A model generated the notes under the pieces. It did not search any database, was not told the DNA's origin, and worked only from the letters and a program-made list of their open reading frames with translations. The translations under genes and the position numbers were made by a program. Of a stretch of 64,000 nt of DNA, positions 2,281-61,819 are shown piece by piece (the stretch's first letter is position 1; every line of letters begins with the position of its first letter). The stretch covers positions 1,430-65,429 of the forward strand of contig JAJZUL010000014.1 of assembly GCA_021848545.1 (NCBI GenBank). The letters run 5' to 3'. The stretch is from Pseudomonadota bacterium. Its GTDB lineage: Bacteria; Pseudomonadota; Alphaproteobacteria; Rhodospirillales; Magnetospirillaceae.

Positions 2281-4302
2281 ATGCCGCCTGCCGCCATCCT
2301 TGGAGGGTGGCAATCATCCTTCCCCTTCGCCGTGTTTTCGGGGTGTCCCTTGAGACCGCTTCCCGTTTTCGTATTGCTCGCCTTGGGCTTGAGCGTCCTT
2401 TTTTGCGTCGTCGCGCCGGCGCGGGCGACCGATCGCGGGAACGCGGATTTGTATCGCAGGGTCCTGGCGCAGGCGCGGGACGGTCATTTCACGGTCGCCC
2501 GGCGTCTGGCGGTTCGCGCCCATTCGGTGGAGCTGGACCGGTTGCTGTCCTGGATGGATTACACTTCGGATAGTCCCACGGGTACTTTCGCCCAGATCAC
2601 GGCCTTCATCACCGCCGGTCCCGATTGGCCGTGGCAGGCCCGCCTGGAGGCGGCGGCCGAAGAGGCGATCACCGGTTCCACGCCCGATAAGGCGTTGGTC
2701 GCCTGGTTCCGTCATCGCTCGCCCATCACCATGGTCGGGGCCGTGGCCTATGCCAAGGCGTTGCTGGCTACCGGCCATACAAAGCAAGGCGTGGCGATGG
2801 TCCGGCGAATCTGGATCCGATATAATTTCAGCCCATTGCGGGAACGGGTGTTTCTGGACAAATTCGGGCGCTATTTAAAGCCTGGGGATAATTGGCGGCG
2901 CCTGGACCGTTTGTTGTGGGATCAGCGAATCACCGCCGCCCGGCGCATGCTGCTCAGGGTCGATGCGGCCCATCGGCTGCTGGCCCAGGCGCGGATCGCG
3001 TTGGAGGTCGACCGCGTCAATCCGTCCATGGCGGTGGCAAGGGTGCCCGCCGCTCTTAAATCCGATCCCGGCCTGATCTTCGACCGCATCCGTTGGCGGC
3101 GCCTGAACGGGTATGACGATCAGGCCATGGATCTGATGCTCCGCGTGCACGCCGCGCCGCGCCGGCCCGGTCTGTGGTGGGCGGAACGCAGCATTCTGGC
3201 GCGCGAGGCCCTGAAGGATGGTCTGGCACGGCGGGCCTATGAGGTCGCGGCCGACAATGGGTTGTCCCCGCGCAGCGCCGACCAGCCGGCCGCCGAATTT
3301 CTGGCGGGATGGATCGCCCTGGATTATCTCGACAAGCCCAAGCTGGCGGCGCCCCATTTCCTGCGTTTGTGGCGCATCACCCGGACGCCGATCTCAAAGG
3401 CCCGTGCCGCCTATTGGTCGGGACGCGCCGCCGAGGCGCTGGGGGACCGCAAGGCGGCTCGCCTTTGGTATGATCGCGCCGCTCGCTTCGTGACCACCTT
3501 TTACGGCCAGCTCGCGGCCTCGCAAATCGGGGAGCGCCACTTGCCGCTGCCGCGAGCGCCCCGGGTCACCGCCGCCGACCGTCACTGGCTGGACAACCGC
3601 GCCTTGATCGGGGTGGTGCGTCTGTTGCGCATGGCGCGGCAGGAGGAATTGATGCGCCCGTTCCTGATCGCCCTGGACACCAGCGCCACCACCCCCGGAG
3701 AGCATGTGCTGGTGGCCCGTCTGGCCGACGAAATGGGGCGCCGCGATGTCGCCGTTCTGATCGCCCGGCGCGCGTCCATGCGGGGCCAGATCATGATCAG
3801 GGCGGGCTGGCCGCTTCCCCGTCTGTCCTTGCGCCGCAAGCCCGCGCGGGCTTTGGTTCTGGCCTTGATACGGCAGGAAAGCAGCTTCCACAGCGCCGCC
3901 CGCTCTCCGGCCGGTGCCCGCGGCTTGATGCAGCTGCTGCCCGCGACCGCCCGGCGCATGGCCCACTTGATCCGGGTCGCGTTCAGCCAACGCAGGCTCG
4001 ACGATCCCGACTTCAATGTGCGGCTGGGGTCGGTTTATCTGGAACGGTTGGTGTCCGAGTTCCACGGCTCCTACGTTCTCGCCCTGGCCGCTTACAATGC
4101 CGGTCCGACGCGGGTGCGGCGCTGGGTCAAAAAATTCGGCAATCCCGGCGACCCGGATGTGGACGCCGTCGATTGGATCGAAAGAATCCCGTTCGGCGAA
4201 ACCCGCAATTACGTGCAACGGGTCATGGAAAGCGTCGAGATATACCGGCGGCGCCTGGGTGAAAAGGGGGGGAGCGATCTCGCCGCCGATCTGAAACGCT
4301 GA
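2281..4302 (+). CDS. slt: soluble lytic murein transglycosylase (Slt70-like)
   Basis: Signal peptide-like N-terminus (LPVFVLLALGLSVLFCVVAPARA), a long superhelical N-domain, and a C-terminal SLT domain with ESSF...GLMQLLPATA...AYNAGP motifs. Start taken at ATG 2281 (alternative TTG 2350). The ORF-track start at 2026 reads through the tRNA fragment and is rejected. Confidence 0.85.
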   Translation: MPPAAILGGWQSSFPFAVFSGCPLRPLPVFVLLALGLSVLFCVVAPARATDRGNADLYRRVLAQARDGHFTVARRLAVRAHSVELDRLLSWMDYTSDSPTGTFAQITAFITAGPDWPWQARLEAAAEEAITGSTPDKALVAWFRHRSPITMVGAVAYAKALLATGHTKQGVAMVRRIWIRYNFSPLRERVFLDKFGRYLKPGDNWRRLDRLLWDQRITAARRMLLRVDAAHRLLAQARIALEVDRVNPSMAVARVPAALKSDPGLIFDRIRWRRLNGYDDQAMDLMLRVHAAPRRPGLWWAERSILAREALKDGLARRAYEVAADNGLSPRSADQPAAEFLAGWIALDYLDKPKLAAPHFLRLWRITRTPISKARAAYWSGRAAEALGDRKAARLWYDRAARFVTTFYGQLAASQIGERHLPLPRAPRVTAADRHWLDNRALIGVVRLLRMARQEELMRPFLIALDTSATTPGEHVLVARLADEMGRRDVAVLIARRASMRGQIMIRAGWPLPRLSLRRKPARALVLALIRQESSFHSAARSPAGARGLMQLLPATARRMAHLIRVAFSQRRLDDPDFNVRLGSVYLERLVSEFHGSYVLALAAYNAGPTRVRRWVKKFGNPGDPDVDAVDWIERIPFGETRNYVQRVMESVEIYRRRLGEKGGSDLAADLKR

Positions 4303-4316
4303 TTGCCCACTCCACA

Positions 4317-4355
4317 TTTAGACCGTGACGCAGAAAATCTGCATCACGGTCTAAA
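4317..4355 (+). terminator. 17-bp-stem hairpin (TTTAGACCGTGACGCAG / CTGCATCACGGTCTAAA), probable slt terminator or repeat module
   Basis: Inverted repeat with one mismatch and a 5-nt loop, 15 nt after the slt stop. Related to the hairpin at 15402-15432. Confidence 0.5.
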
Positions 4356-4361
4356 CGCTTT

Positions 4362-4446
4362 ATATTTGGCCCTCGCCGGGCGCGCGCGTCCGCGCGCTTG
4401 GCATATTTGGCCCTCTGCCTAAGCGCGCGCGTCCGCGCGCTTAGGC
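4362..4446. repeat. tandem duplication (41 + 44 bp units), each containing a GC-rich palindrome
   Basis: ATATTTGGCCCTCGCCGGGCGCGCGCGTCCGCGCGCTTGGC is followed by ATATTTGGCCCTCTGCCTAAGCGCGCGCGTCCGCGCGCTTAGGC. The core AAGCGCGCG-CGTC-CGCGCGCTT is self-complementary. Confidence 0.8.
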
Positions 4447-4581
4447 GCTCGCTCAATGCGCGCCGGAGCGACGCGTCCAAGATTTAGCCAGACGTTTCAG
4501 ATTTCAGGCGCGTCGCTCTAGGCAGCGGTTTCCGCGGATTGTATGGTTCGGGGCATCCGTTTCCGCTCGAAGGTCGCTCCC

Positions 4582-6474
4582 ATGCCAGATTATCGCTCCC
4601 GCACCTCCACCCATGGCCGCAACATGGCTGGTGCCCGCGGGTTGTGGCGGGCGACGGGAATGACCGATGCCGATTTCGGCAAGCCGATCATCGCCGTCGC
4701 CAATTCCTTCACCCAATTCGTGCCCGGCCACGTCCATCTCAAGGATCTGGGCCAGTTGGTGGCGCGTGAAATCGAGGCGGCCGGGGCCGTCGCCAAGGAA
4801 TTCAACACCATCGCCATCGATGACGGCATCGCCATGGGCCATGGCGGCATGCTCTATTCGCTGCCCTCGCGCGAGATCATCGCCGATTCCGTCGAATACA
4901 TGGTCAACGCCCATTGCGCCGACGCCCTGGTCTGCATCTCCAATTGCGACAAGATTACGCCGGGCATGCTGATGGCGAGTTTGCGCCTCAACATCCCGAC
5001 GATCTTCGTGTCGGGCGGGCCGATGGAGGCGGGCAAGGTGGTGGTCGGCGGCGAGACCCATGCGGTCGATCTGATCGACGCGATGATCAAGGCCGCCGAC
5101 AAGGACGTTTCCGACGACGAGGCTTTGGCCTATGAGCGTTCGTCCTGCCCCACCTGCGGGTCCTGTTCCGGCATGTTCACCGCCAATTCGATGAATTGTC
5201 TGGTCGAGGCCCTGGGCTTGGCGCTGCCGGGCAACGGCACGCAATTGGCCACCCATGCCGACCGCAAGGAGCTTTTCCTGGCGGCCGGGCGCCGCATCGT
5301 CGATCTGTGCCGGCGCTATTACGACGGGAATGACGAATCGGTGCTGCCCCGCGCCATCGCCGATCGGCGGGCGTTCGAAAACGCCATGACGCTGGATATC
5401 GCCATGGGCGGTTCGACCAACACCGTTCTGCATCTTCTGGCGGCGGCCGAGGAAGGAAAGGTGCCCTTCACCATGGCCGATATCGACCTGTTGTCGCGCC
5501 GGGTGCCGTGCCTGTGCAAGGTGGCGCCCAATCGCGCCGACGTGCATATCGAGGATGTTCATCGCGCCGGCGGCATCATGGCCATTCTGGGCCAGTTGGA
5601 GCGGGCGGGACTGCTCCATACCGAGTGCGGAACCGTTCATGCCCCCAGTCTGGGCGCGGCCCTGGCCGCGTGGGATATCGACCGCACCAACGATCCGGCA
5701 ATCCAGACGTTTTTCGCCGCGGCGCCGGGCGGGGTTCGCACCACCGAAGCGTTCAGCCAGTCGCGCCGCTGGGACTCGCTCGATCGTGACCGCGCCCAGG
5801 GGGTGATCCGGTCGCCCGAGCACGCCTATTCCCGGGATGGCGGTCTTGCCGTTCTGTTCGGCAACATCGCCCGCGACGGCTGTATCGTAAAAACCGCCGG
5901 CGTCGATGAATCCTGTCTGGTCTTTTCCGGTCGCGCCCTGGTTTGCGAAAGCCAGGACGAGGCGGTGGAGCGCATCCTGGGCGGCGGGGTCGTCGCCGGC
6001 GATGTGGTGGTGATCCGCTATGAAGGGCCGCGCGGCGGTCCCGGCATGCAGGAAATGCTCTATCCCACCAGCTATCTCAAAAGCGTCGGCCTCGGCAAAG
6101 CCTGCGCCCTGATCACCGACGGGCGGTTTTCGGGTGGCACTTCGGGGCTGTCGATCGGCCATGTATCGCCCGAAGCGGCCGAGGGCGGCGCCATCGGCCT
6201 GATCGAAACGGGGGATGTCATCGATATCGATATTCGTGCCCGGCGCATCGATCTCCGGCTCTCCGAAGGGGAATTGGCGGAACGGCGGCGGCGCATGGAC
6301 GCCAAGGGCGACGCGGCCTGGCGGCCGGAGGGGCGCAATCGTCCGGTCAGCCGGGCCTTGCAGGCCTATGCCGCCATGACCACCAGCGCCGCCCGCGGCG
6401 CTGTTCGTGACGTCACGCGTCTAGAGTCGGATGCGATCAGATCGAATCGCGCCGCGATTCCATCTGATCGCTGA
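4582..6474 (+). CDS. ilvD: dihydroxy-acid dehydratase
   Basis: N-terminus [35 protein letters not shown], and full-length IlvD/Edd pattern. The last 17 codons lie inside the repeat element at 6421-6560. Confidence 0.95.
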
Positions 6475-6560
6475 ATCCTCCTCTAAATCAATAAATTAGA
6501 GTGCGATTCGGACGTTGGATCGACGCATTCATGCGTCGATCCAACGTCATCGCGCTCTAG
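6421..6560. repeat. 140-bp palindromic mosaic element (CTAGAG...CTCTAG), copy 1
   Basis: Near-identical modules to 47976-48125: GGATGCGATyAGrTyGAATCGC..CGCGATTC, CCTCTAAATCAATAAATTAGAGTGCGATTCrGAC, and a terminal hairpin ending GTCATCGCGCTCTAG. Confidence 0.8.
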
Positions 6561-6629
6561 GAACGGCCGCCGGGTAACGCTAAATAGTAGGGGCGATCTC
6601 CCGGGTCATCGGGTGAAAGGTATGTAGGG

Positions 6630-7478
6630 ATGGCGTCAATCGCCTGGCGGGAATTGATGGGGGTCGGCATCCCCGAAATCGATGCCGATCATCGGACGCT
6701 GTTGACCTTGGCCAACGATCTGTACGGCGCCATCGGCGACGAGGAGGAACGCCTCATCCTCGGGTCGGTGCTCAAGGCCGTATGCGATTTCGCCGACAGC
6801 CATTTCGCGCGTGAGGAAACGCTGATGGCGGCGGTCGGCTATCCCGGACAGGCCGCCCATATCGCCGCCCATGACCGCCTGCGCGGGCGTGCGGCGGCGT
6901 TGGCCCGGCGCTACGATGGCGACGGCCCGTCCGTCGATACCAAGGATTGTCTCGATTTTCTGCATCACTGGGTGGTCGATCACATCTGCACTGCCGATAT
7001 GGATTATCGCGGCTGGGTGGTGGGGCGACCGGGGCTGGCTACGCTGTTGACGGATGAGCCGGAAACCGGGCTGGACGGGGCGCCCAATCTGGATTGGCGG
7101 CAATTGAGTCTGCTGCTGGTGGACGACAATGCGCGGTTTCGCCGGGTGATGCGAACCATTCTGGAAGGAATCGGTGTGCGCAACATCGCCGAGGCGCCGG
7201 ATATCGATACCGCCAAGGTCATCTTGGATGCCGTCGCCGTCGATGCGGTGGTTACCGACGGTCAGATCGGGGGACGGTGCAGTCGCGATCTGCTCGGCTG
7301 GATGCGCGAACGTCCGAATTGGCCCCGTCCGGTGGTGGTCGTTCTGTGCGGAGCGGAGCAAATGGATCGGGCGGCGGTGCTGGCCGCCGGCGCCGATGAA
7401 ATTCTTGAAAAGCCGGTTTCAGCGCGGCGGCTGCTGACCGGCTTGGCGCGTTTGTTGATCAGGATACCCTCGGAATGA
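6630..7478 (+). CDS. hemerythrin-like domain / response-regulator receiver fusion protein
   Basis: The N-terminal half has bacteriohemerythrin signatures (IDADH..., HFAREE, HIAAHDRL, HWVVDHICTADMDY). The C-terminal half is a REC domain (LLLVDDN..., VVTD phospho-acceptor, EKPV). There is no output domain. Confidence 0.8.
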   Translation: MASIAWRELMGVGIPEIDADHRTLLTLANDLYGAIGDEEERLILGSVLKAVCDFADSHFAREETLMAAVGYPGQAAHIAAHDRLRGRAAALARRYDGDGPSVDTKDCLDFLHHWVVDHICTADMDYRGWVVGRPGLATLLTDEPETGLDGAPNLDWRQLSLLLVDDNARFRRVMRTILEGIGVRNIAEAPDIDTAKVILDAVAVDAVVTDGQIGGRCSRDLLGWMRERPNWPRPVVVVLCGAEQMDRAAVLAAGADEILEKPVSARRLLTGLARLLIRIPSE

Positions 7479-8662
7479 GTGAAGCCTTTACCGATCTGGG
7501 CGTGTTCGAAAACGGGACATTGCGGCTGCTGCCCAGCGTTCATCCGCTGCCGTCCCTGTTGTCCATGGAGCCCAAGGCCGTCCTGGAGGGATTTCGCGAC
7601 AGCCAGCGGGACGATTTCCTGCGGGTGATCCGCGACATGGAACCGTCGCATTCGTCTCTCGGCCAATTGTTCTCCGGCTTGCGCGGGCAGGCGAGGGACG
7701 AGTCCTTGCTGTATCCGGCGGCGCTGGAAGCCCTGTTCCTGGATTTGCACGACCATGTCATGAGCCATCCGGTCTGGAGGCATCCGTTTTTTCTCAGGGT
7801 TTTCGCGGGCGATATCGATCGGCCGCAGGTCGAGCGCTTCCTGCTCCATTATTTCAACCAGATCAAGAACACGCGTCAATGCGTGGCGCTAACCATCGGT
7901 CGCTTCAACAGTCTGATGGAAATGCCGCTGGGGACGATCAACGAACGGGTATCGGAGATCACCCAGATCGCCTTGGCCCAGTTGGTGGCCGATGAGTACG
8001 GGGTGACGACCCATGCCATCGAGTCCTACCCCGAGCTTGGCCATCTGCTGCGGGCCCACACTCATATCGCCATGTACCGCCAGCTTTTGGATGGGCTGGG
8101 GATCGCCCGCGAGGCCCAGGATGTTCCCATGCTGCCCGAGGTGGCCGACAATGTCCTGACCCAGCGCCTGCTGGCCGGTCACCCGGCCTTTACGCCCCTG
8201 GAGGCGCTGGCCTCCACCGGACTGGGGATGGAGTGGGGCGTTCCGGAATTTTTCAGCCTGCTTCTGGGCGGGTTGATCCGGTTCGCCGTGCGCGAAAATC
8301 TGGCGCTGGGACATCATGAGCTGGAGGTGTTCATCGAACATGTGCGCTATGACGTGCTGCATGCGATTTCGGTGATGTTGGTGACGGCGTTGCACATGCA
8401 TGGCACAGACGATCTGGCCGCTGTCAAAGGGGCGTGCAACACGCTGATGGCCAGCCGCTTCGCCATGATGTCGGGCATCCATTCCGCCGTTTACGGCGAA
8501 CCCTGCGCCTCTCTGGAGGATATGGGGTTGGAGGGACGCTATCGCCTGCGCGACCGGCGGATCGCCCTGGCCCTGGTGGAGGCGAGACGATCCGTAGGGG
8601 GTGGGGTCGCCGATGCCTATCTTTACCGCAGCCGCAGTGGTACGCCCTTTCCGTTCGCGTGA
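7475..8662 (+). CDS. heme-oxygenase-like fold protein (iron-containing redox enzyme / PqqC-TenA-CADD-like), function unknown
   Basis: 395 aa, all-helical pattern with spaced acidic/His residues (ADEYG, HTHIAMY, GMEWGVPEF, IEHVRYDVLH). ATGA overlap with the upstream gene at 7475-7478. The family call comes from pattern recognition only. Confidence 0.55.
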   Translation: MSEAFTDLGVFENGTLRLLPSVHPLPSLLSMEPKAVLEGFRDSQRDDFLRVIRDMEPSHSSLGQLFSGLRGQARDESLLYPAALEALFLDLHDHVMSHPVWRHPFFLRVFAGDIDRPQVERFLLHYFNQIKNTRQCVALTIGRFNSLMEMPLGTINERVSEITQIALAQLVADEYGVTTHAIESYPELGHLLRAHTHIAMYRQLLDGLGIAREAQDVPMLPEVADNVLTQRLLAGHPAFTPLEALASTGLGMEWGVPEFFSLLLGGLIRFAVRENLALGHHELEVFIEHVRYDVLHAISVMLVTALHMHGTDDLAAVKGACNTLMASRFAMMSGIHSAVYGEPCASLEDMGLEGRYRLRDRRIALALVEARRSVGGGVADAYLYRSRSGTPFPFA

Positions 8663-8727
8663 GCTTGATGTCGGGCCGTCCCCGCACAAGCTTTTACGTG
8701 AGAGAGATTTTGCTGGGAGTGGAGAGA

Positions 8728-8928
8728 ATGTCGCAGGTTTATCTGGTGGCCGGCATGACCTGCCAGGGGTGCGCGCGCTCGGTGGAGGCGGCGATCAAGT
8801 ATGAATCGCCGAAGGCCGCGGTGAGCGTCGATCTGGGCTCCGCCCAGGTGACGGTGGACGGTGCCAGCGAGGATCAGGTCAAAAAAGCGGTGGGCGAGGC
8901 TGGATTCAGCTTTATCGGCCCGGCCTGA
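8728..8928 (+). CDS. copZ: heavy-metal-associated (HMA) domain metallochaperone, CopZ-like
   Basis: 66 aa with a GMTCQGC metal-binding motif and a beta-alpha-beta-beta-alpha-beta length. RBS GGAGAG lies upstream of ATG 8728. Confidence 0.8.
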   Translation: MSQVYLVAGMTCQGCARSVEAAIKYESPKAAVSVDLGSAQVTVDGASEDQVKKAVGEAGFSFIGPA

Positions 8929-9090
8929 TGAGACGGGGGCCGGCGGGTGACGGTGTAATACCAGCGACCGTAAGTCTTGACTTGCGGCCGCTGGTTCGGC
9001 CGCCATTGAGGCGGCGGCCAAGCGAGCGGATGCGAGCGCCCGGCGAGGGCCATAAGGCGGGTCAGTTTATTGAGCCGCCGGTATAAACCG

Positions 9091-10619
<1,529 letters not shown>

Positions 10620-10623
<4 letters not shown>

Positions 10624-12509: not shown

Positions 12510-12843
12510 GGCGGGCTTACCGTGCTGGTGGTCGATGGGGTGATGGTATCCCGGGCGACCGGGGCGGAACCGGGGTCCAAAGGGCGCTTTGATATCCCCA
12601 CGATTCCGGCGCGGCATCATAGGGGGCGGTCATTCCCCCCGCAACAGGCGAATCCCCCGAAGTCCAAGTGACGACACGAAAATACAGCATCGCGGCGTGA
12701 AATGCCTTGCGTCGGCGGACCTGGTCGTTTTTAATCTTTTTCAACGCTGGAGCGCACCGGGTCGGGCGCTCCGGTCAAGACTGCGCCGCTGAACGAGCGC
12801 GTCATAGACATTCATCGGGTTGGCACCTTTAAGGATTGAATAC

Positions 12844-13245
12844 ATGGCCGGACTCCCGCTTTACATCCTGCTCGCCTCGGGCGAGCATGAAAAAATTCAG
12901 CTTGCCGCGATGATCGCCTCGGTGGGGGCGGTGTCGGATCGGCCTGTGGAAGTATTCGTCAGCATGGACGCGTTGCCGGCATTCCGGCGTGATATCGAGC
13001 CCGCCGAGCGCTATCACGGCGGCCCGCTACACGAAACCTTCATGACCTCCAAGGTTCCCGATGCCATGGAATTGTTTTCCAATGGGCGCATGCTCGGCGA
13101 TCTCAAGATGTGGGCCTGCGCTCTCATTTTGGATCTGCACCATTGGGAGGTCGAAAAAGACCTGGTTGAGGGATTGTTCGACGGTCCCGCCGGTCTGACC
13201 GTGTTTTTGGCCTCCGCCGAAGGCGGCCAGTTGATCACCATTTGA
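12844..13245 (+). CDS. DsrE/DsrF-like (DrsE_2 type) sulfur-relay family protein
   Basis: About 133 aa. LYILLASGEHEK..., a conserved Cys in MWACALILDL, and the tail GLTVFLASAEGGQLITI are typical of the DsrE-like 'peroxiredoxin family' proteins encoded next to TusA. ATG 12844 is preferred over TTG 12820. Confidence 0.65.
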   Translation: MAGLPLYILLASGEHEKIQLAAMIASVGAVSDRPVEVFVSMDALPAFRRDIEPAERYHGGPLHETFMTSKVPDAMELFSNGRMLGDLKMWACALILDLHHWEVEKDLVEGLFDGPAGLTVFLASAEGGQLITI

Positions 13246-13261
13246 CACAGGTATACACGTT

Positions 13262-13492
13262 ATGAGTGAACGCCAAAAAATCGACGCCCGCGGGGCATTC
13301 TGTCCCGGTCCCCTGATGGAACTGATCGCCGCTCTCAAGCTGGCTCAGGTCGGTGAGGAAATCGAGGTTCTGTCGTCGGACAAGGGGTCGGCCGCCGATA
13401 TTCCGGCCTGGGTCGCCAAGGTGGGCCACGTTCATGTCGGCACCACCGAACAGGACGGCTGCTGGACCATCATCGTTCGCAAGGCGAAGTGA
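13262..13492 (+). CDS. tusA: TusA-like sulfurtransferase
   Basis: 76 aa with the diagnostic DARGxxCPxP motif (DARGAFCPGP). Confidence 0.85.
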   Translation: MSERQKIDARGAFCPGPLMELIAALKLAQVGEEIEVLSSDKGSAADIPAWVAKVGHVHVGTTEQDGCWTIIVRKAK

Positions 13493-13514
13493 TCCGCCCT
13501 GATCCGAGGGACGG

Positions 13515-13592
13515 CTTTGATCAAAGGCGTGGCAAACACGCCGAATGCAAGGGCGTGGAAAATCGCCCGATACCAAGACGTGGAAAACACGC
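13515..13592. promoter_or_regulatory. candidate operator region: 12-bp palindrome plus three phased 15-nt repeats
   Basis: CTTTGATCAAAG (13515-13526). Then CGTGGCAAACACGCC (13528), CGTGGAAAATCGCCC (13554) and CGTGGAAAACACGCA (13579), spaced 25-26 bp apart and each partly palindromic. The region lies in the 164-bp gap upstream of the SQR-like gene. Confidence 0.4.
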
Positions 13593-13656
13593 AGGTGAGT
13601 TCGCATAGGGGCGCCGCGCCCGTGCGGTCGCTCTCATATGGCCAAGGGAGGTCTTC

Positions 13657-14796
13657 ATGTCGAAAAGGATAGTGATCGTCGGTGGCGGGTTGGCCGGCAC
13701 CATCGTGGCAAACGGTGTATGCCGCCAGTTGGGGAACGAGTTGCGGAGCGGTGGCGTTTCGGTGACCATGTTGGGGACCTCCGAAACCCACATGTATCAG
13801 CCCGGACTCCTCTATGTGCCGTTCGGCAAGATCCGTGAGGCCGAGCTTTTTCGCGACCAGCGCCGCGTGCTTGATCGCCGGGTCAATTTCATGATCGATC
13901 CCGCCAAGAAGATCGACGTGGACGCCAATCAGGTGGAAACGGCGAGCGGTCGCATCATCGGTTACGATTATCTGGTGCTGGCCACGGGGTCGCGCATCAT
14001 GCCGCAGAACATTCCGGGAATGACCGAGGCCGGACATTGGTTCTACGATCTCGACGGTGCCCGCAAGCTGCGTGAAGCCTTGGACAATTTCACCGGCGGC
14101 GAAGTGGTGGTCAACGTCAACGCTCCCCACAAATGTCCGGTCGCGCCCCTCGAAATCACCTTCATGCTCTATGAATACTTCAAGGCGAAGGGGATCGGCG
14201 ACAAGTGCAAGATCACTTACACTTATCCCATCGGTCGGCTGCATGCGCTGGAGCCGGTCGCCCATTGGGCGGGGCCGGAGTTCGAGCGTTACGGCATCAA
14301 ATCCGAAACCTTTTTCAACACCGAATCGGTCGATCCCGCCAAGAAGACCATCAAGTCGATGGAAGGGGTGGAGTTGCCCTTCGATCTTCTGATCACCATT
14401 CCGCCCCATGCCGGCGCCGAGGTGATCACCGATTCCGATCTTGGCAAGGGCGGTTGGGTCCCCACCAACACCCGCACTTTGCAGCGGGAAGGGTCGACCA
14501 ACGTCTTCGTTTGCGGGGATACCACCAACATCCCCATTTCCAAGGCCGGTTCGACCGCCCATTTCGAGGCCGATGTGCTGATCGACAATCTGGTGTCGCT
14601 GGTGCAGGAAGGCCGTCCCGCCCGGGAATATGACGGCAAGGTGTTCTGCTTCGTCGAAACCGGGATGAATTCCGGAACCTATGTGTGGTTCAATTACACG
14701 ACGCCGCCCAATCCCGGACCGCCGTCGCAAATGATCCATTGGTTCAAGCTGGCCTATAACCGACTGTACTGGTTGTCCGCCCGCGGCCTGCTGTGA
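13657..14796 (+). CDS. sulfide:quinone oxidoreductase-like FAD-dependent pyridine nucleotide-disulfide oxidoreductase
   Basis: N-terminal Rossmann motif IVIVGGGLAG, HKCPVAPLE, and VFVCGD near the C-terminal FAD motif. Length 379 aa. RBS AAGGGAGG. Confidence 0.8.
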   Translation: MSKRIVIVGGGLAGTIVANGVCRQLGNELRSGGVSVTMLGTSETHMYQPGLLYVPFGKIREAELFRDQRRVLDRRVNFMIDPAKKIDVDANQVETASGRIIGYDYLVLATGSRIMPQNIPGMTEAGHWFYDLDGARKLREALDNFTGGEVVVNVNAPHKCPVAPLEITFMLYEYFKAKGIGDKCKITYTYPIGRLHALEPVAHWAGPEFERYGIKSETFFNTESVDPAKKTIKSMEGVELPFDLLITIPPHAGAEVITDSDLGKGGWVPTNTRTLQREGSTNVFVCGDTTNIPISKAGSTAHFEADVLIDNLVSLVQEGRPAREYDGKVFCFVETGMNSGTYVWFNYTTPPNPGPPSQMIHWFKLAYNRLYWLSARGLL

Positions 14797-14809
14797 CGGG
14801 AGGAGCATC

Positions 14810-15352
14810 ATGACCGAGACATCTGCAAACGCCGATGCCGCCGCTCAGTTCCTTCGCTTAGGCAACGCCGTCGTCGACGCGATGACCGATACCATGGTCG
14901 AGCGTTTGACGGGGACGGCGGGGAACGCCCTGGAACTGGTCGATAAGCTGAACGATCCCGATGTGCGCGAGGGGGTGTCCTCCCTGCTTGACGCGGTGGG
15001 GACCATGCATCGAACCGGCGTACTGACCACGATCGTCGAATTGCTGACTTTGGTTCACGCGGCCCGGTCGGCGGCCACCGACTCCATGGTCGAGCGCGCT
15101 TTCGCCTTCGTCGAGCACATGGTGAACACCGTGGGCACGGAGGATATCGGCACTCTTGCCTATGAGGCCAAGAGCGCCATGGAGGATGCCGTCGACATTT
15201 GCGGCATTCCCGCCTCCGGCGGCGGGCTGTGGGGAACCGTGCGTCTTCTCACCCAACCCCAAACCCAGGAAGCGTTGCGATTCGTGCTCTCCTTCGCCTG
15301 CGCCTTGCGCAAGCGGTCGGTGTTCATGTCCAAAACGCCGACGCCCTCCTGA
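14810..15352 (+). CDS. DUF1641 domain protein
   Basis: 180 aa, helical, immediately downstream of the SQR-like gene with RBS GGGAGGAG. This pairing with NADH-dehydrogenase/SQR-family genes is the usual DUF1641 context (from memory). Confidence 0.6.
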   Translation: MTETSANADAAAQFLRLGNAVVDAMTDTMVERLTGTAGNALELVDKLNDPDVREGVSSLLDAVGTMHRTGVLTTIVELLTLVHAARSAATDSMVERAFAFVEHMVNTVGTEDIGTLAYEAKSAMEDAVDICGIPASGGGLWGTVRLLTQPQTQEALRFVLSFACALRKRSVFMSKTPTPS

Positions 15353-18650: not shown

Positions 18651-20821
<2,171 letters not shown>

Positions 20822-20953
20822 GCCGGCGCGGGTGTAGGAAATCCGAATCAAAGTGAGTCTTTCCGGTAACAGGTCGGGGCGATTGTGCGAAAAAAACGCA
20901 TTTCGCCTTGTCGATCTGTTGACCGCCTGAATCGGCTGTGATTCCATCTGGTC

Positions 20954-21310
20954 ATGTTGAATGACCTGCGCCGCCGTTTTCACCATGTCATGGGGCCGAT
21001 GATCGCCTTTTCGGCCGTCGTCTACTTCGCCTATCACACGATCGAGGGCGATCGCGGCGTGCTGGCCTGGCTGCGGCTCAAAACCGAAATCGCCAATGCC
21101 GAAGTCAAGCTGGCGACTTTGGACGCTCAGCGCCAGGAGCTTCAGCATCGGGTCGCCCTGCTGCGTCCCAAGAGTCTTGACCCGGATCTTCTGGGCGAAC
21201 GCGCCCTGGCCATGCTCGATCTGGGGCAGCCCGGCGATATCGTGGTGTTCTACAAGCACCCGGCGCCCACGGGTGGAAAGCTGGCTGTGGACCATCCGGC
21301 CGCTCATTAG
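20954..21310 (+). CDS. ftsB: septum formation initiator family protein (FtsB/DivIC-like)
   Basis: N-terminal TM (MIAFSAVVYFAY), a coiled-coil segment, and LLGERAL. Conserved eno-ftsB-pdhA context. The stop TAG lies inside a repeat palindrome. Confidence 0.8.
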   Translation: MLNDLRRRFHHVMGPMIAFSAVVYFAYHTIEGDRGVLAWLRLKTEIANAEVKLATLDAQRQELQHRVALLRPKSLDPDLLGERALAMLDLGQPGDIVVFYKHPAPTGGKLAVDHPAAH

Positions 21311-21343
21311 AGCGCGATGCCCTAAATGAGCATCACGCTCTAA
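21307..21343. repeat. minimal palindromic version of the mosaic element termini
   Basis: TTAGAGCGCGATGC (21307-21320) pairs with GCATCACGCTCTAA (21330-21343). It matches the ...CATCGCGCTCTAG ends of the 6421-6560 and 47976-48125 elements. Confidence 0.65.
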
Positions 21344-21732
21344 CCCGTTTTGTTTTGCCCTCGCCGCGCGGGTGTCCGTGCCCTCAATGAGCGCGAGAGC
21401 TGCGTGCCTCGTATTTAAGGCGCGCCGCTCCAGGTTTTTCCATACGTCTTCAAAAGAACGATCGATGGGCGGTGCGGGGGGTGTCATCCCCGATGTCTGA
21501 ATGGCGCCGTAATTTGTTGATAAGAGGCGGGTTTGGCGTCCGCCCAATGGTCCTTGGCTTTAAGGCGGGGGGCGCCTTGGTCGAAATTGCTGCTCCGCAG
21601 CAATTAACTAAAATGAAGTTAATTGAATTTAATCCCTTGTAATATAAGTGATAAAATCGGCGAAAAGTCTTGCCAAGACGCCGTCTTCGCGGTACCGATC
21701 TTGCGGTTTCTGACGTGGATTCCGGAGGAAGA

Positions 21733-35678: not shown

Positions 35679-36104
35679 TCAGGCGAGACGCATCAGAAAT
35701 GGCCGATAGGGGCGATCCGCTTCCCGAATATGGTGAAGCAGGCGATCGGTGAAATAGTCGATGGTCCGAGCCAAGAGGGAGTCGCGGCCGCCCATGGTCG
35801 GTGCCGCGCTCTGCCAATCCGCCTGAAGGGTCTCGGCCTGGGCCAGCAGGCGGTGGTGATGAGCCTTGTGCGCGGCGAATCTCGGGTAATTATGCCGATC
35901 CAGCATGTTTTCTTCGCTGGCGAAGTGGTCGCGGACGGCCGACACCACATCCTTGAAGTGAGTGCCGAGATGGAGGCCATCGGTGTCGGACAGGGCGGAC
36001 GCGATGAAATCGTTGAACAATTCTACAAGTCCAAGATGTTCTGCATCGAGAAGTGGAACGCCAACCTTGAGATCGTTCGACCAGTCGACCCGCGTCAACA
36101 TCAT
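35679..36104 (-). CDS. bacteriohemerythrin (single-domain)
   Basis: 141 aa with W..DLKVGVPLLDAEH, HFASEE, HKAHH and LLHHIREAD iron-ligand pattern. Confidence 0.85.
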   Translation of the reverse strand: MMLTRVDWSNDLKVGVPLLDAEHLGLVELFNDFIASALSDTDGLHLGTHFKDVVSAVRDHFASEENMLDRHNYPRFAAHKAHHHRLLAQAETLQADWQSAAPTMGGRDSLLARTIDYFTDRLLHHIREADRPYRPFLMRLA

Positions 36105-47975: not shown

Positions 47976-48125
47976 CTAGAGCCGGATGCGATTAGGTTGA
48001 ATCGCTTCGCGATTCGCCCTAATCGCTGAATCCGCCTCTAAATCAATAAATTAGAGTGCGATTCAGACATTAGATCACGCGCTTGCGCGCCTATCTCGCG
48101 CCTATCTAATGTCATCGCGCTCTAG
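47976..48125. repeat. 150-bp palindromic mosaic element (CTAGAG...CTCTAG), copy 2
   Basis: CTAGAGCCGGATGCGATTAGGTTGAATCGCTTCGCGATTCGCCCTAATCGCTGAATCCGCCTCTAAATCAATAAATTAGAGTGCGATTCAGACATTAGAT...ATCTAATGTCATCGCGCTCTAG. The left 90 bp are near-identical to 6421-6510. Confidence 0.8.
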
Positions 48126-48649
48126 GGTTCTCCCCGCCCCGCAATCGGCGTTGGCCCCATGATCCGCGTGTCGAAGGCATTGATGACGACCGTACCGGCC
48201 AGCCAATCGTGCAAGGTCCTCCGACGGCGGTTGAACAAAGCCACGATCAGTATCAGGGAGCCGGTAGCGGCAATGGAACCGTAAAACGTTACGGTCTGGA
48301 TGACGGCTTGCGGCAGGGTCGGATGTCCATCGGATCCGGCGGCGATGCTCATGACCCGGATACTCATGGCGCGCATCCCCAAGGTGGCCGCGCGCGGTCC
48401 TCCTATCTGCAGCGAATGATAGGCCAATGGGACCAGGACGGATGGTACCCCAAGAAGCGGCCAGGTCGCCCCCAACGTAAAAATACCCAGAATGAGAAGG
48501 CAGCCCCACAGCGCGGCGACCACCACCATGATCGCGATGACATCGACGGCGTAAGCGAGAATGCGCTTGCCGACAATGCCGTCAAAATAATCCGGGCTGA
48601 TGTCCGGACGGTGCCGCGAGGCGTATGCCGTCACCAATTTGGCCGTCAT
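48122..48649 (-). CDS. RDD family membrane protein
   Basis: RILAYAVDVIAIMVVVAAL..., three TM segments, and RRRTLHDWLAGTVV are typical of the RDD domain. The start overlaps the motB stop (ATGA). The stop codon lies in the terminal CTCTAG of the repeat. Confidence 0.7.
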   Translation of the reverse strand: MTAKLVTAYASRHRPDISPDYFDGIVGKRILAYAVDVIAIMVVVAALWGCLLILGIFTLGATWPLLGVPSVLVPLAYHSLQIGGPRAATLGMRAMSIRVMSIAAGSDGHPTLPQAVIQTVTFYGSIAATGSLILIVALFNRRRRTLHDWLAGTVVINAFDTRIMGPTPIAGRGEP

Positions 48650-56365: not shown

Positions 56366-56968
56366 ATGTTTCTCCTGATAGATAATTTCGACAGCTTCAC
56401 TTACAACCTTTGGCACTACCTTGGTGAAATGGGGGCCGAGGTGGAGGTGCGGCGCAATGATGCCGTGAGCGTCGATGAGGCGTTGGCGATGGCGCCCGAA
56501 GGGATCGTCATTTCCCCAGGCCCCTGCGATCCGGATCGGGCCGGAATATGCCTGGATCTGATCGCGCGGGCCGCGGGGATCGTTCCCATCCTGGGTGTGT
56601 GTCTGGGCCACCAGGCCATCGGACAGGTCTTTGGCGGCACGGTCGTTCGCGCGCCGACCCCCATGCACGGGAAGGTCGACCATATCCATCACGACGGCAG
56701 CGGCCTCTTTGCCGGCATTCCTTCGCCGTTCCAAGCCACCCGCTACCACTCCCTGGTGGTCGACCGCGCCAGTCTGCCGCCGGTTTTGCGGATGACGGCC
56801 TGGAGTGAAGACGGATTGATCATGGGCTTGGCCCATCGTGATCTGCCGGTCTGGGGCGTGCAGTTCCACCCGGAAAGCATCGAGACGGAACACGGTCACC
56901 GTCTGCTGGGTAATTTCGTCGAGCGCTGCCGTCCCGCCGGGGATGGCGCCCACAAGCGCGTAGCCTGA
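56366..56968 (+). CDS. trpG: anthranilate synthase component II (glutamine amidotransferase)
   Basis: [25 protein letters not shown] triad motifs. Directly followed by trpD and trpC. Confidence 0.9.
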
Positions 56969-56970
56969 AC

Positions 56971-58026
56971 ATGTCCGACCAGACTTTACCGTCCGGTTTT
57001 GATCTGATGAAAGCGGTTTTGGGGCGCATCGCCGGCGGCCATCGCTTGTCCGTCGCCGAAAGTGAGCAGGTTTTCGACGTCCTGATGTCGGGCGGCGCCA
57101 CGCCGGTTCAAGTCGGCGGATTGCTGATGGCGTTGCGCATGCGCGGGGAAACCGTCGAGGAAATCACCGGCGCGGCCCAGGTGATGCGGGCCAAGGCCGT
57201 GCATATGGAGGCGCCGGCCGGCGCCATCGACACTTGTGGAACCGGTGGCGACGGGGCAGGGACCTACAACATTTCGACGGCAACCGCATTCGTGGTGGCG
57301 GCCTGCGGCGTGCCGGTCGCCAAACACGGCAACCGCGCCATGTCGTCCAAATCGGGGTCGGCGGATGTTCTGGCGGCGCTGGGCGTCAATATCATGGCGG
57401 ATATGGCTTTGGTCCGGGAATCCCTGTGGACCGCCAATCTCGGTTTCCTGATGGCGCCGCGGCACCACGACGCCACCCGCCACGTCTCGGCGGCAAGGGC
57501 CGAGCTGGGAACGCGCACTATTTTCAATCTGTTGGGTCCGCTTTCCAACCCCGCCGGCACCACCCGGCAAGTGGTCGGTGTCTTTTCCGATCATTGGGTG
57601 CGGCCGCTGGCCGAAGTTCTCGGGCGGTTGGGCGCGGAGCGGGCCTGGGTCATTCACGGCGCCGACGGGCTGGACGAATTGACCACGACCGCGTCGTCCC
57701 TGGTGGCCGAATGGCGGAACGGAGAGGTGCGGGTCTTCGAGGTCATGCCGGAGGCGGCCGGCTTGCCGCGGGCCCGTCCCGAGGACTTGCGCGGCGGTGA
57801 TGCCGCTGAAAATGCGGCGGCGCTATTGGCAATTCTCAAGGGTGAGCGGAACGCTTATCGGGATATAGTGTTGCTCAACGCCGCCGCCGCCCTGATCGTC
57901 GCCGACAAAGCCGAGGATCTGGCCGGTGCCGCGGCAATGGCGGCCGAGGCGATCGATAGCGGGCGGGCGCAAGCCGTCTTGGACCGCTTGGTGGCCATTA
58001 CCAACAGACCGCCCGCGCAATCCTGA
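56971..58026 (+). CDS. trpD: anthranilate phosphoribosyltransferase
   Basis: [36 protein letters not shown] motifs. Confidence 0.95.
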
Positions 58027-58052
58027 TTTGTTTTTGCCAAGGATTTTTCGCC

Positions 58053-58874
58053 ATGGGAGAGCCCGCGACCGTTCTCGACCGTATCTGTAACGATAAAAGA
58101 AAGCAGGTGGCGGAGCAGAAAGGCCGGCGCTCCATCCAGGAGTTGCTGCGCCGCGCCGCCGATCAGGCGCCGCCACGAGGGTTTCGCGCCGCGCTGGAAC
58201 GCTCGATCGCTAAAATCGGCATCGGGCTGATCGCCGAAATCAAGAAGGCGTCGCCCTCCGCCGGAATTATTCGGCCCAATTTCAATCCGGCGGTCTTGGC
58301 CAGAGCCTATGCCCATGGCGGTGCCGCGTGTCTGTCGGTGTTGACGGACCAACGTTTTTTTCAAGGCTCCGAGGCTGATTTGGGGGCGGCGCGGTCGGCC
58401 TGTGATCTTCCCGTGCTGCGCAAGGATTTCATGGTCGACCCTTATCAGGTGGTCGAGGCCCGGGCGTTGGGCGCGGACTGTATCCTGTTGATCGCGGCGT
58501 CCTTGTCCGACGCGGAAATGGCGCAGATGGAGGATATCGCCCTCGGCTACGGTATGGACGTTCTGGTCGAGGTGCATGACGAGGCGGAAATGGAACGCGC
58601 CCTCCGATTGAAAACACCCCTGATCGGCATTAACAACCGTGATCTCAAGATCATGAAGACCGATATCGCGAACACTGAACGATTGGCGGGTATGGTGCCT
58701 GCCGACCGGCTGCTGGTGTCGGAAAGCGGAATCGATAGCCCCGTGGATATTCGGCGCCTGGCCGCGGCGGGAGCCAAAGCGTTCCTGGTCGGCGAATCGC
58801 TGTTGCGCCGCGCCGATGTGGAGACGGCGGTCCGGGTCTTGTTGGCGGGGGCTGGGGGGCAGGCCACGGGATGA
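58053..58874 (+). CDS. trpC: indole-3-glycerol phosphate synthase
   Basis: [38 protein letters not shown] motifs. Confidence 0.95.
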
Positions 58875-59368
58875 GCGACGAAAAGGGCGCCACGCCCGAT
58901 TTGACCCATTTCGATAGCGGCGGCAACGCCGTGATGGTGGATGTTTCGGCCAAGGGCGAAAGCGAACGGGTGGCGGTGGCCCGGGGGCTTGTGATCATGA
59001 AAGGGGAAACCCTCGCCTTGATCGCCGAACGGCGCATCGAAAAAGGCGACCCTTTGGCCGTCGCCCAATTGGCGGGCATCATGGCCGCCAAGCGCACGCC
59101 GGACCTTATTCCCCTTTGTCATCCCCTGGCGTTGACCGCGGTTACCGTTGATCTTGCCCTCGATCATGAGCGGTGCGCGGTGGCCATCGAGGCGACGTGT
59201 CGCCTGAAAGGTCGGACAGGCGTGGAAATGGAGGCATTGACCGCCGTTTCCGTAGCCGCCTTGACCATCTATGACATGCTCAAGGCCGTGGACAAGTCCA
59301 TGCGCGTCACCGATATCCGCCTTGTTCACAAATCGGGCGGGAAATCAGGTCTCTGGCAAGCCGAATAA
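58871..59368 (+). CDS. moaC: cyclic pyranopterin monophosphate synthase
   Basis: [34 protein letters not shown] motifs. ATGA overlap with trpC. Confidence 0.95.
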
Positions 59369-59380
59369 GGAGGGAAATCG

Positions 59381-60583
59381 ATGATTTCCGTCGAAACCGC
59401 ACGGTCGCAAATCGTGGCGGCCGCCGCGCCGCTTCCCGCCGAACAGGTGGCCTTGTCTCAAGCGCGGGGGCGCGTCTTGGCCGGCGATCTGGCGGCGCGG
59501 GTCAATCACCCACCGCTGGCGGTGTCCAGCATGGATGGTTGGGCGATACGGGCGGCCGATTGCCAGGCTGCGCCGGCCACGCTGGCCATCATCGGGGAGT
59601 CGGCCGCGGGCAAGCCCTTTGACGGAAATGTCGGGCCGGGACAAGCGGTCCGCATTTTCACCGGGGCGCCGATGCCCGCCGGTGCCGACGCGGTCGTTCG
59701 TCAGGAAGACGCCGAGCGGCGCGGGGGGGAGGTGGTGGTCGGAACCGCCGTGCCGCCGGGGAAATATGTGCGTACGCCGGGCCTTGATTTTGCCGTCGGC
59801 GACGTTCTGTTGAGGTCGGGTACGGTGCTGGGGCCTCGTCAAATCGGTTTGGCGGCGGCGATGAATCTGGTGTGGCTGCCGGTGCGTCGACGGCCGCGGG
59901 TGGCCATCTTGTCAACCGGCGACGAAATCCGGATGCCGGGGGAACCGTTGGGAGAGGCGCAGATACCTGGATCCAACGGTCCCGCCCTGGTAGCGCTGAT
60001 CGAGGCCCATGGCGGCGAAGCCGTCGATCTGGGCATTGCCCAGGATAGCCGTCAGTCGATCTCGGCGCTGTTGGCCGGTGCCGCCGGCGTGGATTTGCTG
60101 GTGACGTCCGGGGGCGCTTCGGTCGGGGATTACGATCTGGTCCAGGATGCGCTTGCCGAGTCCGGTTTCATCCTGGATTTCTGGAAAATCGCCATGCGGC
60201 CGGGCAAGCCTTTGATGTTCGGTCGTTTGCGGGATATTCCGGTGCTCGGTCTGCCCGGCAACCCCGTGTCGGCCCTGGTGGCCGCGCTGTTGTTCCTGGT
60301 GCCGATGCTACGCGGCTTTCAGGGATTGCCGACAGATCCGCCGTTGGCCACCGCGCGTCTGGGGTGCGCCTTGCCCGCCAATGGCGAGCGTGAGGCCTTT
60401 CTTCGCGGCAGTCTTGCGTTCGACGCCGACGGGATGGGCGTGGCGACACCCTTCGACAAACAGGATTCGGCGGTACTGTCGGGGATGAGCGCGGCCGATG
60501 TGCTGATCATCCGTCCCGTGGACGCGCCCGCGGCCGAAGCCGGCGACAAGGTTCGGATTCTGCCTTTGGAAAGCTGGGCGTAA
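59381..60583 (+). CDS. moeA: molybdopterin molybdotransferase
   Basis: SSMDGWA, STGDE, TSGGASVGDYD, GLPGNPVS motifs. Confidence 0.9.
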   Translation: MISVETARSQIVAAAAPLPAEQVALSQARGRVLAGDLAARVNHPPLAVSSMDGWAIRAADCQAAPATLAIIGESAAGKPFDGNVGPGQAVRIFTGAPMPAGADAVVRQEDAERRGGEVVVGTAVPPGKYVRTPGLDFAVGDVLLRSGTVLGPRQIGLAAAMNLVWLPVRRRPRVAILSTGDEIRMPGEPLGEAQIPGSNGPALVALIEAHGGEAVDLGIAQDSRQSISALLAGAAGVDLLVTSGGASVGDYDLVQDALAESGFILDFWKIAMRPGKPLMFGRLRDIPVLGLPGNPVSALVAALLFLVPMLRGFQGLPTDPPLATARLGCALPANGEREAFLRGSLAFDADGMGVATPFDKQDSAVLSGMSAADVLIIRPVDAPAAEAGDKVRILPLESWA

Positions 60584-61692: not shown

Positions 61693-61819
61693 TCCATGCA
61701 AGGCGGCTCTGCCCGTCGGTTCGGGTGGGGCCGTCGCTGCCGATCGTCGGGACGGCGGACGGTGATTTGGGGTTTCGATAGCGGGGGCGCGGCACTTGGT
61801 TCGCGACGAGGTCAAGACG

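Follow-up and report, generated by a model that had tools for sequence, protein, structure and literature searches.

A hemerythrin-receiver gene overlapping the gene of a predicted dimetal enzyme behind ilvD in a Magnetospirillaceae contig

Does a protein that joins an oxygen-binding hemerythrin domain to a phospho-receiver serve the oxygen-activating enzyme whose gene it overlaps? The question is raised by a locus in a 64,000-nt stretch of DNA from a Pseudomonadota bacterium of the family Magnetospirillaceae (Rhodospirillales; GenBank assembly GCA_021848545.1, contig JAJZUL010000014.1, positions 1,430 to 65,429 of the forward strand), which was analysed as a whole and is referred to here as the window. 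At this locus, downstream of the dihydroxy-acid dehydratase gene ilvD, a gene for a hemerythrin-receiver protein (Hr-REC) runs into one for an enzyme of the heme-oxygenase-like diiron oxidase/oxygenase (HDO) type. HDOs make up a superfamily with more than 10,000 members and about a dozen known functions, nearly all of them in natural-product pathways (PMC13108848). The fold and the metal-ligand set of the enzyme are those of this known superfamily with its thousands of uncharacterised members; its distinguishing marks are the dedicated hemerythrin-receiver partner and a regulator-rich, housekeeping-like context. Literature searches on the Hr-REC architecture, on the enzyme family and on PF14518 found neither Hr-REC nor the enzyme subfamily described, which agrees with an earlier reading of the sequence, made without database searches (the sequence-only reading), that had not recognised the combination as a described system.

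That reading had reported three co-oriented open reading frames (ORFs) between ilvD and a convergent trpE, and had seen the enzyme start on the stop codon of Hr-REC through an ATGA overlap. The three ORFs lie at the coordinates it gave (Table 1), and the overlap is plain in the junction sequence TCG GAA TGA GTG (TCGGAATGAGTG), where the enzyme's ATG and the TGA of Hr-REC share four nucleotides; the third gene, for a small heavy-metal-associated (HMA) protein, begins 65 nt after the enzyme gene. GC contents at third codon positions of 0.74 and 0.78 are ordinary for genes of the window, and exact copies of the three-gene stretch occur on several metagenome contigs. A promoter and terminator scan of positions 4300-9200 gave nothing above shuffled expectation, and a search of the whole window against Rfam at gathering thresholds gave zero matches.

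The enzyme has homologs in 551 clusters of a 90%-identity collection (E <= 0.001) and in 58 clusters among 1.84 billion representatives at the 50% level; those among the 120 homologs listed are mostly 390-420 aa long and 56-72% identical to it. Family members with names come from Magnetospirillum, Rhodoblastus, Methylovirgula, Thiodiazotropha, Sedimenticolaceae, Thiohalomonadaceae and Sideroxydans. The closest copy in a GTDB species genome is 67% identical, and 80 genome loci, under alpha-, beta- and gammaproteobacterial names, carry the gene at 54-67% identity. Database labels for these proteins read ‘hypothetical’, ‘iron-containing redox enzyme family protein’ or, wrongly, ‘PqqC’.

AlphaFold, given 42 homologs, models the protein as entirely helical (pLDDT 79.6, pTM 0.84), and a Foldseek comparison with the PDB put CADD on top (8va9; E 7e-4, target TM 0.76), with UndA, BesC (target TM 0.76), HrmI, FlcD and AetD among the other matches, followed by the metal-free TenA and PqqC. 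The heme-oxygenase-like diiron fold that had been suggested for the 395-aa protein from its sequence is thus borne out by AlphaFold and by Foldseek matches to CADD, UndA and BesC. A PDB search with the window enzyme as a single sequence returned chance matches only, and the ligands were placed with the help of a family profile and a bridging homolog. The profile matches CADD and 4-aminobenzoate synthases (E 6e-6 to 4e-4), aligning H197 with CADD H88 and H289/D293/H296 with CADD H174/D178/H181. The bridging homolog, P0148 (E 2e-28 to the window enzyme, 4.5e-10 to BesC and 8e-7 to CADD), places E174 (ADEYG) on the ADEVG of BesC and on E81/E82 of CADD, and E253 (MEWGVP) on CADD E142; D173 is possible in place of E174 as the first carboxylate ligand. 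All six predicted ligands (E174, H197, E253, H289, D293 and H296) are invariant in 42/42 close homologs, and they fall in the four segments ADEYG, HTHIAMY, EWGVPEF and EHVRYDVLH that the sequence-only reading had singled out. As judged from model and alignments, the enzyme has an HDO fold with a complete set of three histidines and three carboxylates, and hence a predicted dimetal site.

A metal-free protein of the TenA/PqqC type, named beforehand as the finding that would speak against such an enzyme, is ruled out because the ligand set is complete, and PF03070 (TenA/PqqC) scores 12.8 bits, below its cut-off of 22. Ligands have been lost elsewhere, in distant full-length relatives at 24-34% identity (P0128, P0129, P0131, P0135, P0139 and P0140), which lack some or all of H197, E253, H289, D293 and H296; most metal ligands are missing from P0135, P0139 and P0140. 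The same relatives mostly retain H94, H98, H103, N132, E174, D225, R231 and W254, and by these residues may be metal-free paralogs or users of a second conserved site.

Comparison with characterised proteins brings out what is particular to this subfamily. BesC and UndA are diiron HDOs that cleave C-C bonds in free amino or fatty acids; they share the fold of the window enzyme and a free substrate, as would be expected for the window enzyme, and BesC, the best PDB match of P0148, also shares ADExG at the first ligand. They differ in that their sequences do not detectably match that of the window enzyme directly, and in that they belong to natural-product or alkene pathway contexts, without a hemerythrin or receiver partner. 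CADD (Chlamydia CT610) and NePabS have the same heme-oxygenase-like helical fold, an identical H-x3-D-x2-H spacing and equivalent E / H / E ligands, but are only 16-17% identical. Canonical HDOs of about 240 aa align to residues ~82-340 of the window enzyme, so that its additional ~85 N-terminal and ~50 C-terminal residues are family-specific; a further insertion of ~14 residues, with an invariant His180, separates the first Glu from the first His ligand. The residues that CADD consumes, Tyr27 and Lys152 (PMC13108848), align to an invariant F106 and to L263 respectively. DtpC of Acinetobacter baumannii is HDO-like, stands outside natural-product clusters and has an oxidative-stress role (PMC13232832), which the OxyR-like and AhpD-like neighbours of the present family echo; its relatives are those of Acinetobacter and Pseudomonas (PMC13232832), genera outside the lineages considered here.

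The partner protein is built as the sequence-only reading had it, with an N-terminal bacteriohemerythrin domain, a linker of ~30 aa and a C-terminal receiver without an output domain. Matches to PF01814 (49.6 bits, cut-off 25.3) and to the bacteriohemerythrin model NF033749 (99.5, cut-off 84) support the first domain and PF00072 (50.5 bits, cut-off 30.2) the last. In an alignment of 15 full-length orthologues, 45-52% identical to the window copy, the seven positions of the diiron motif (H21, H58-x3-E62, H77-x3-H81 and H118-x4-D123) are near-invariant. The DD, VVTD and EKPV residues previously picked out in the receiver correspond to the acidic pocket D165/D166, the acceptor D210 and K261, all of them invariant or nearly so in the orthologues. 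The unusual cysteine in VVVLCG is Cys240, at a position where the orthologues have Ser (LVLSGH), and the conserved Ser/Thr (T87 of CheY) is missing; at the position of CheY Tyr106 the window copy has Ile and the orthologues have Phe (ADEFMEKP). The architecture is rare, with 37 clusters among 5.8 billion proteins, nearly all ~280 aa long.

Hemerythrin sensor domains fused to signalling modules are known from the Desulfovibrio chemoreceptor DcrH and the Vibrio diguanylate cyclase Bhr-DGC. Like these, Hr-REC joins a full-motif bacteriohemerythrin to a signal-transduction domain, which makes a role in O2 or redox sensing plausible. It differs in that the partner is a C-terminal receiver only, without a kinase, cyclase, methyl-accepting chemotaxis protein (MCP) or DNA-binding output, and in being a rare architecture tied to one enzyme gene. 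Hr-REC also resembles the single-domain regulators CheY, DivK and CpdR in its acidic pocket, acceptor Asp, Lys and lack of an output, and like them would act by protein-protein contact, but it adds an N-terminal diiron domain, and the window copy has Cys and Ile at the switch residues. The window encodes a second, stand-alone bacteriohemerythrin (35679-36104, minus strand, 140 aa; PF01814, 47 bits), which shares 31% identity with the Hr-REC hemerythrin domain.

How firmly the two genes belong together was assessed in 80 species-level GTDB genome loci and 75 metagenome loci that carry the enzyme gene. Among the genome loci, ilvD and Hr-REC precede the enzyme at 16, ilvD and a REC-only gene at two (L012 and L013) and ilvD directly at one (L018; so too, with a 1-nt overlap, in L004). 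A GNAT acetyltransferase lies just upstream at eight, an OxyR-like gene upstream with a TrpD-like gene downstream at 24, and a TrpD-like gene downstream only at six, Sideroxydans included; about 23 have none of these partners beside the enzyme. The order ilvD / Hr-REC / HDO recurs at nine of the 75 metagenome loci, two of which, L134 and L142, keep the pair at an identity to the window's of only 28% in the receiver and 39% in the hemerythrin; further pairs are in L094/L095 and in L174. The 4-nt overlap of Hr-REC and enzyme is found again in L094 and L174, and in ~28 of the 29 Hr-REC lineages seen the enzyme follows immediately. In 25 related loci, ilvD at 75-83% identity stands directly upstream of Hr-REC/HDO; the unit first proposed, real as its three genes are, had left out what is the block's constant upstream gene.

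Hr-REC and the enzyme are thus a tightly linked pair behind ilvD in a Magnetospirillum-like group of the Rhodospirillales, kept together at about 28 loci of Rhodospirillales type besides that of the window. The linkage is clade-specific and not a trait of the whole enzyme family, so that the co-occurrence with hemerythrin-REC genes that had been suggested for inspection among homologs is conserved in one clade but not family-wide. In most relatives a convergent fpr follows the enzyme. At L092 (6001-6831; likewise at L093), a divergent Hr-REC (P0213, 32% identity) lies behind ilvD with neither the enzyme nor the convergent fpr, and comparison of L094 with L092 finds HDO and fpr together present or together absent at the same site. 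Fpr could be the enzyme's reductase. Hemerythrins also accompany the enzyme outside this block: in an unrelated lineage (L101, 2474-4178) a stand-alone hemerythrin gene follows ~50 nt downstream, and in four Thiodiazotropha loci (L056, L070, L085 and L086) one stands upstream of an OxyR-like / HDO / TrpD-like row. These arrangements argue that the hemerythrin link exceeds inherited gene order.

The reading that we put first, tentatively and at somewhat less than an even chance, is that the enzyme is an O2-activating dimetal oxidase of a free, probably aromatic metabolite, gated or serviced through contact with an O2/iron-sensing Hr-REC. The enzyme would bind Fe2 or Fe/Mn, activate O2 and oxidise or cleave a free small molecule, for which aromatic acids and arylamines are the probable candidates, for instance an amino- or hydroxybenzoate or a tyrosine- or chorismate-derived compound. 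The hemerythrin domain would most likely report O2 and iron-redox status, the receiver would take input from a kinase, and Hr-REC would exert its effect on the enzyme through direct contact between the two proteins, because it has no other output; that the products of overlapping genes are made together likewise suggests such contact. When O2 is available, Hr-REC might gate the O2-dependent reaction or help to maintain the enzyme's labile metal site. A functional pairing would show a way in which an O2-activating enzyme with a labile metal cofactor can be gated or serviced, and would give a role to a receiver protein without a classical output.

Several observations weigh against this view. 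The window receiver may signal poorly, to go by its residues, because Cys replaces the Ser/Thr and Ile the aromatic switch residue, and no histidine kinase gene was found among the window ORFs checked or in the neighbourhoods examined, one 563-aa ORF (61796-63487) being an MCP. On the side of the enzyme, its only Pfam match, to PF14518 (Haem_oxygenas_2), scores 26.1 bits, below the cut-off of 28.9, although nine of 18 family members match that model at E < 0.01. The model falls below pLDDT 50 at residues 142-152 and 168-192, the region of E174. In known HDOs the ligand-bearing helices are labile too, and the cofactors notably so (PMC13108848); the poorly modelled region is compatible with the ligand assignment and proves nothing. 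Each gene also occurs singly at the same site, as ilvD / HDO in L004 and L018 and as ilvD / Hr-REC in L092, and the order could be inherited rather than selected, because in the Rhodospirillales the pair is always one syntenic block behind ilvD. Lastly, the aromatic neighbours on which the substrate proposal leans are mostly found beside homologs of 39-47% identity, outside the window's clade.

Clues to the reaction come from the neighbours of the wider enzyme family. In the main clade there are two kinds: regulators linked to O2 or peroxide, namely Hr-REC and an OxyR-like protein, and amine-directed transferases, namely GNAT and TrpD-family proteins. The OxyR-like protein of the 24 gammaproteobacterial loci has a GHCL...C redox motif and scores 262.6 bits against the OxyR model, under the cut-off of 329. 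The TrpD-family genes adjoin that of the enzyme in three different layouts and are of two types, one reaching 192 bits against TIGR01245 (cut-off 199), the other matching PRK09071 at 400 bits and lying divergently upstream of the enzyme. A GNAT gene lies just upstream of the HDO gene with a 4-nt overlap in L090 (7510-9209), and in the Rhodoblastus-like L088 and L089 (8001-9695) GNAT is fused to the N-terminus of HDO in a 564-aa protein, the only enzyme domain fusion among the 240 homologs listed.

Homologs at 39-47% identity retain all invariant motifs and keep different company. On a short metagenome contig (L096, 1-2768), a true pabB (TIGR00553, 339.7 bits against a cut-off of 328.4) ends 12 nt upstream of a 47%-identical HDO. 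In L097, a homolog is accompanied by a polyprenyl synthase, a NUDIX protein, an MFS transporter and a true 4-hydroxyphenylpyruvate dioxygenase; in L175, HDO stands between a polyprenyl synthase, with a 4-nt overlap, and an aromatic prenyltransferase of the UbiA/MenA type with a methyltransferase. L150 and L137 carry an acyl-CoA ligase, a flavoprotein resembling salicylyl-CoA 5-hydroxylase, a phosphopantetheinyl transferase and a CMD/AhpD-like protein. L175 (1-15197) further holds a halogenase-like flavoprotein, aminotransferases, a P450 and a condensation domain, and the surroundings of the homologs in L175, L097 and L150/L137 (39-45% identity) resemble natural-product pathways. Because the neighbours of these relatives are aromatic and the nearest characterised relatives are 4-aminobenzoate synthases, gene context points to an aromatic acid or arylamine as the probable substrate or product.

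A narrower proposal, which we regard as doubtful, is that the ~400-aa HDO subfamily makes or remodels an aromatic head-group or an arylamine precursor, either of the 4-hydroxy- or 4-aminobenzoate type, from a tyrosine- or chorismate-derived compound without self-sacrifice, and that the Rhodospirillales have placed it under post-translational control by Hr-REC. Were it true, the enzyme would become the first HDO to have a dedicated partner that senses O2/iron and responds to phosphorylation, and Hr-REC would represent a new type of response-regulator output. The recurring pabB, TrpD-like, 4-hydroxyphenylpyruvate dioxygenase, UbiA-type prenyltransferase and aryl-CoA hydroxylase neighbours offer a testable lead to the substrate. 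The subfamily is in any case unusual in its high conservation and in its place among housekeeping genes, with O2- or redox-linked partners that vary by lineage: the hemerythrin-receiver, stand-alone hemerythrins or the OxyR-like regulator.

The constant place behind ilvD allows a different explanation, namely that the genes form a protection module for IlvD, an Fe-S enzyme sensitive to O2, reactive oxygen species and copper, in which the HDO would limit O2, H2O2 or free iron, a function proposed for the desiccation factor DtpC, with the hemerythrin as a buffer or sensor of O2 and iron; this would be why the genes have stayed with ilvD. We think this unlikely, for all that ilvD / Hr-REC / HDO, ilvD / HDO (with the 1-nt overlap of L004) and ilvD / Hr-REC all lie directly behind ilvD and that DtpC, compared by description, sets the example of an HDO-like protein whose protective role depends on its ligands (PMC13232832). 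The OxyR-like regulator at the 24 gammaproteobacterial loci, a CMD/AhpD-like gene upstream at six loci of a clade at 41-45% identity, the fpr and a gene for an A-type Fe-S carrier near the block in relatives, and a CopZ-like gene close by in the window would all suit it. Outside the Rhodospirillales, however, the family has no link to ilvD, the CopZ-like gene is not conserved with the unit, and GNAT, TrpD-like, pabB, prenyltransferase and CoA ligase partners point to small-molecule metabolism rather than detoxification.

The adjacency may instead mean nothing for function, Hr-REC being a single-domain response regulator in its own right, such as one of an aerotaxis or redox phosphorelay, and the gene order simply inherited. 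That each gene is found alone at the same locus (L004, L018, L092), and that synteny with ilvD is common to all Hr-REC loci, is what this explanation would predict; the 4-nt overlap, too, is less telling for an enzyme gene that often overlaps whatever lies upstream by as much, GNAT in L090 and the polyprenyl synthase in L175. Some hemerythrin adjacencies could also be chance, because the window has a second, stand-alone hemerythrin. We nevertheless hold the absence of coupling to be improbable, given that the enzyme is immediately downstream in ~28/29 Hr-REC lineages, that the pair persists at 28-39% Hr-REC identity, that a REC-only gene occupies the same slot in L012 and L013 and that hemerythrin genes adjoin the enzyme in two unrelated arrangements.

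If the partners do work together, Hr-REC could still be a supplier rather than a sensor, delivering O2 or Fe(II) to the HDO's labile metal site while the receiver only modulates. Proteins from overlapping genes would be made together, stand-alone hemerythrins free of any signalling domain lie beside the enzyme in L101 and Thiodiazotropha, and Magnetospirillum, Thiodiazotropha and Sideroxydans, among the host lineages, are groups of microaerophiles. The notable lability of HDO cofactors (PMC13108848) fits as well. Delivery of O2 has been proposed for the Methylococcus hemerythrin and methane monooxygenase, and PMC11841059 mentions a hemerythrin that delivers O2. We consider this distinctly unlikely, since it leaves unexplained both the fused phospho-receiver and the receiver kept alone in L012 and L013, and most family members lack a hemerythrin neighbour.

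Very improbable, finally, is a self-sacrificing 4-aminobenzoate synthase of the CADD/NePabS type that feeds folate biosynthesis: among solved structures, CADD and the 4-aminobenzoate synthases come nearest in sequence and fold, the six ligands are the same and pabB lies beside the 47%-identical homolog of L096, but this type is rejected because both sacrificial residues are missing. The enzyme is also ~160 aa longer, with its extra N- and C-terminal segments, and a pabB neighbour speaks against replacement of the canonical pathway.

Table 1. Positions of the hemerythrin-receiver and enzyme genes, their domains and the flanking features in the window
Feature	Positions	Strand	Basis
ilvD (dihydroxy-acid dehydratase)	4543..6474	+	ORF list; PF00920/PF24877 on the identical contig's gene
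Palindrome-rich mosaic element, resembling a miniature inverted-repeat transposable element (MITE)	6425..6561	.	Inverted repeats, RNA fold, second copy
Hr-REC gene, 282 aa	6630..7478	+	ORF list, Pfam/NCBIfam, orthologue alignment
Hemerythrin domain, aa 4-129	6639..7016	+	NF033749; ligand positions near-invariant in 15 orthologues
Receiver (REC) domain, aa 160-274	7107..7451	+	PF00072; orthologue alignment
HDO-type enzyme gene, 395 aa	7475..8662	+	ORF list, homolog search, AlphaFold, Foldseek
Heme-oxygenase-like core, aa ~85-345, with predicted metal ligands	7727..8509	+	HDO alignments
HMA metallochaperone gene, 66 aa, MTCQGC, MSQVYLVAGMTCQGCARS	8728..8928	+	PF00403
trpE (anthranilate synthase component I), convergent	9091..10623	-	TIGR00564

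To the left, the block is bounded by the mosaic element that the sequence-only reading had pointed to, which proved to be real: a palindrome-rich unit of ~137 bp (CTAGAG...CTCTAG), part of which lies in the 155-nt spacer between ilvD and Hr-REC. Its hairpins, located by an inverted-repeat search, span 6433-6471 and 6511-6548, the spacer (6475-6629) folds as RNA with a z of -6.3, and a second copy at ~47976-48127 shows 84% column identity, giving a unit of ~137-150 bp. In relatives, ilvD and Hr-REC are only tens of nucleotides apart and the element is absent, which marks it as a lineage-specific insertion into the ilvD / Hr-REC / HDO row. The element covers the last codons of ilvD, and because of this overlap the extra C-terminal residues of IlvD, 643 aa long here and ~617 aa in relatives, probably derive from it. 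A riboswitch or classical terminator was considered for the hairpin at 6511-6548 and ruled out, since the hairpin has no T-run and sits, with that at 6433-6471, within a repeated element.

On the right, the third gene does encode a 66-aa HMA protein with MTCQGC, as first described, and scores 40.5 bits against PF00403 (cut-off 24.8); the best CopZ equivalog model, NF047957, gives 39.8 bits against a cut-off of 85. Its membership of the unit did not hold up. In none of the 80 GTDB loci does an HMA gene follow the enzyme, and none was detected within 3 kb downstream in the 75 metagenome loci. In L174, the closest relative at 72% identity, the genes run Hr-REC / HDO / a 389-aa deacetylase-like gene / HMA / trpE / ppiD, the last two convergent; the HMA gene, being apart from the enzyme and beside trpE there, belongs to the trpE side of a lineage-specific rearrangement. 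A CopZ-like gene as a member of the unit is thus ruled out by comparative context. The P-type ATPase motif DKTGT is absent from the window, and no copper ATPase was among the ORFs checked.

The trpE gene itself (TIGR00564, 572.3 bits against a cut-off of 517.7) is a housekeeping gene paired with ppiD, and its adjacency to the block is lineage-specific, relatives carrying the convergent fpr in that place. An apparent housekeeping trpG-trpD-trpC row, recognised by start sequences and gene order, lies 47 kb from trpE together with two further ORFs (56366-60583, plus strand), and the TrpD of the window is only 28% identical to the enzyme-flanking TrpD-like proteins of the Gammaproteobacteria. Because trpE is a housekeeping gene and trpGDC lies 47 kb off, we treat the adjacency of trpE to the block as unproven.

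Two further stretches of the window deserve mention. A 720-aa ORF on the minus strand (19382-21547) has no Pfam match and a third-position GC content of 0.67, below that of its neighbours, and could be foreign or fast-evolving. Beside ppiD, on the plus strand (12820-15352), a row of genes for a 141-aa protein without a family, TusA (named on the identical contig), a 379-aa Pyr_redox_2 oxidoreductase and a DUF1641 protein looks like a small sulfur/redox cluster.

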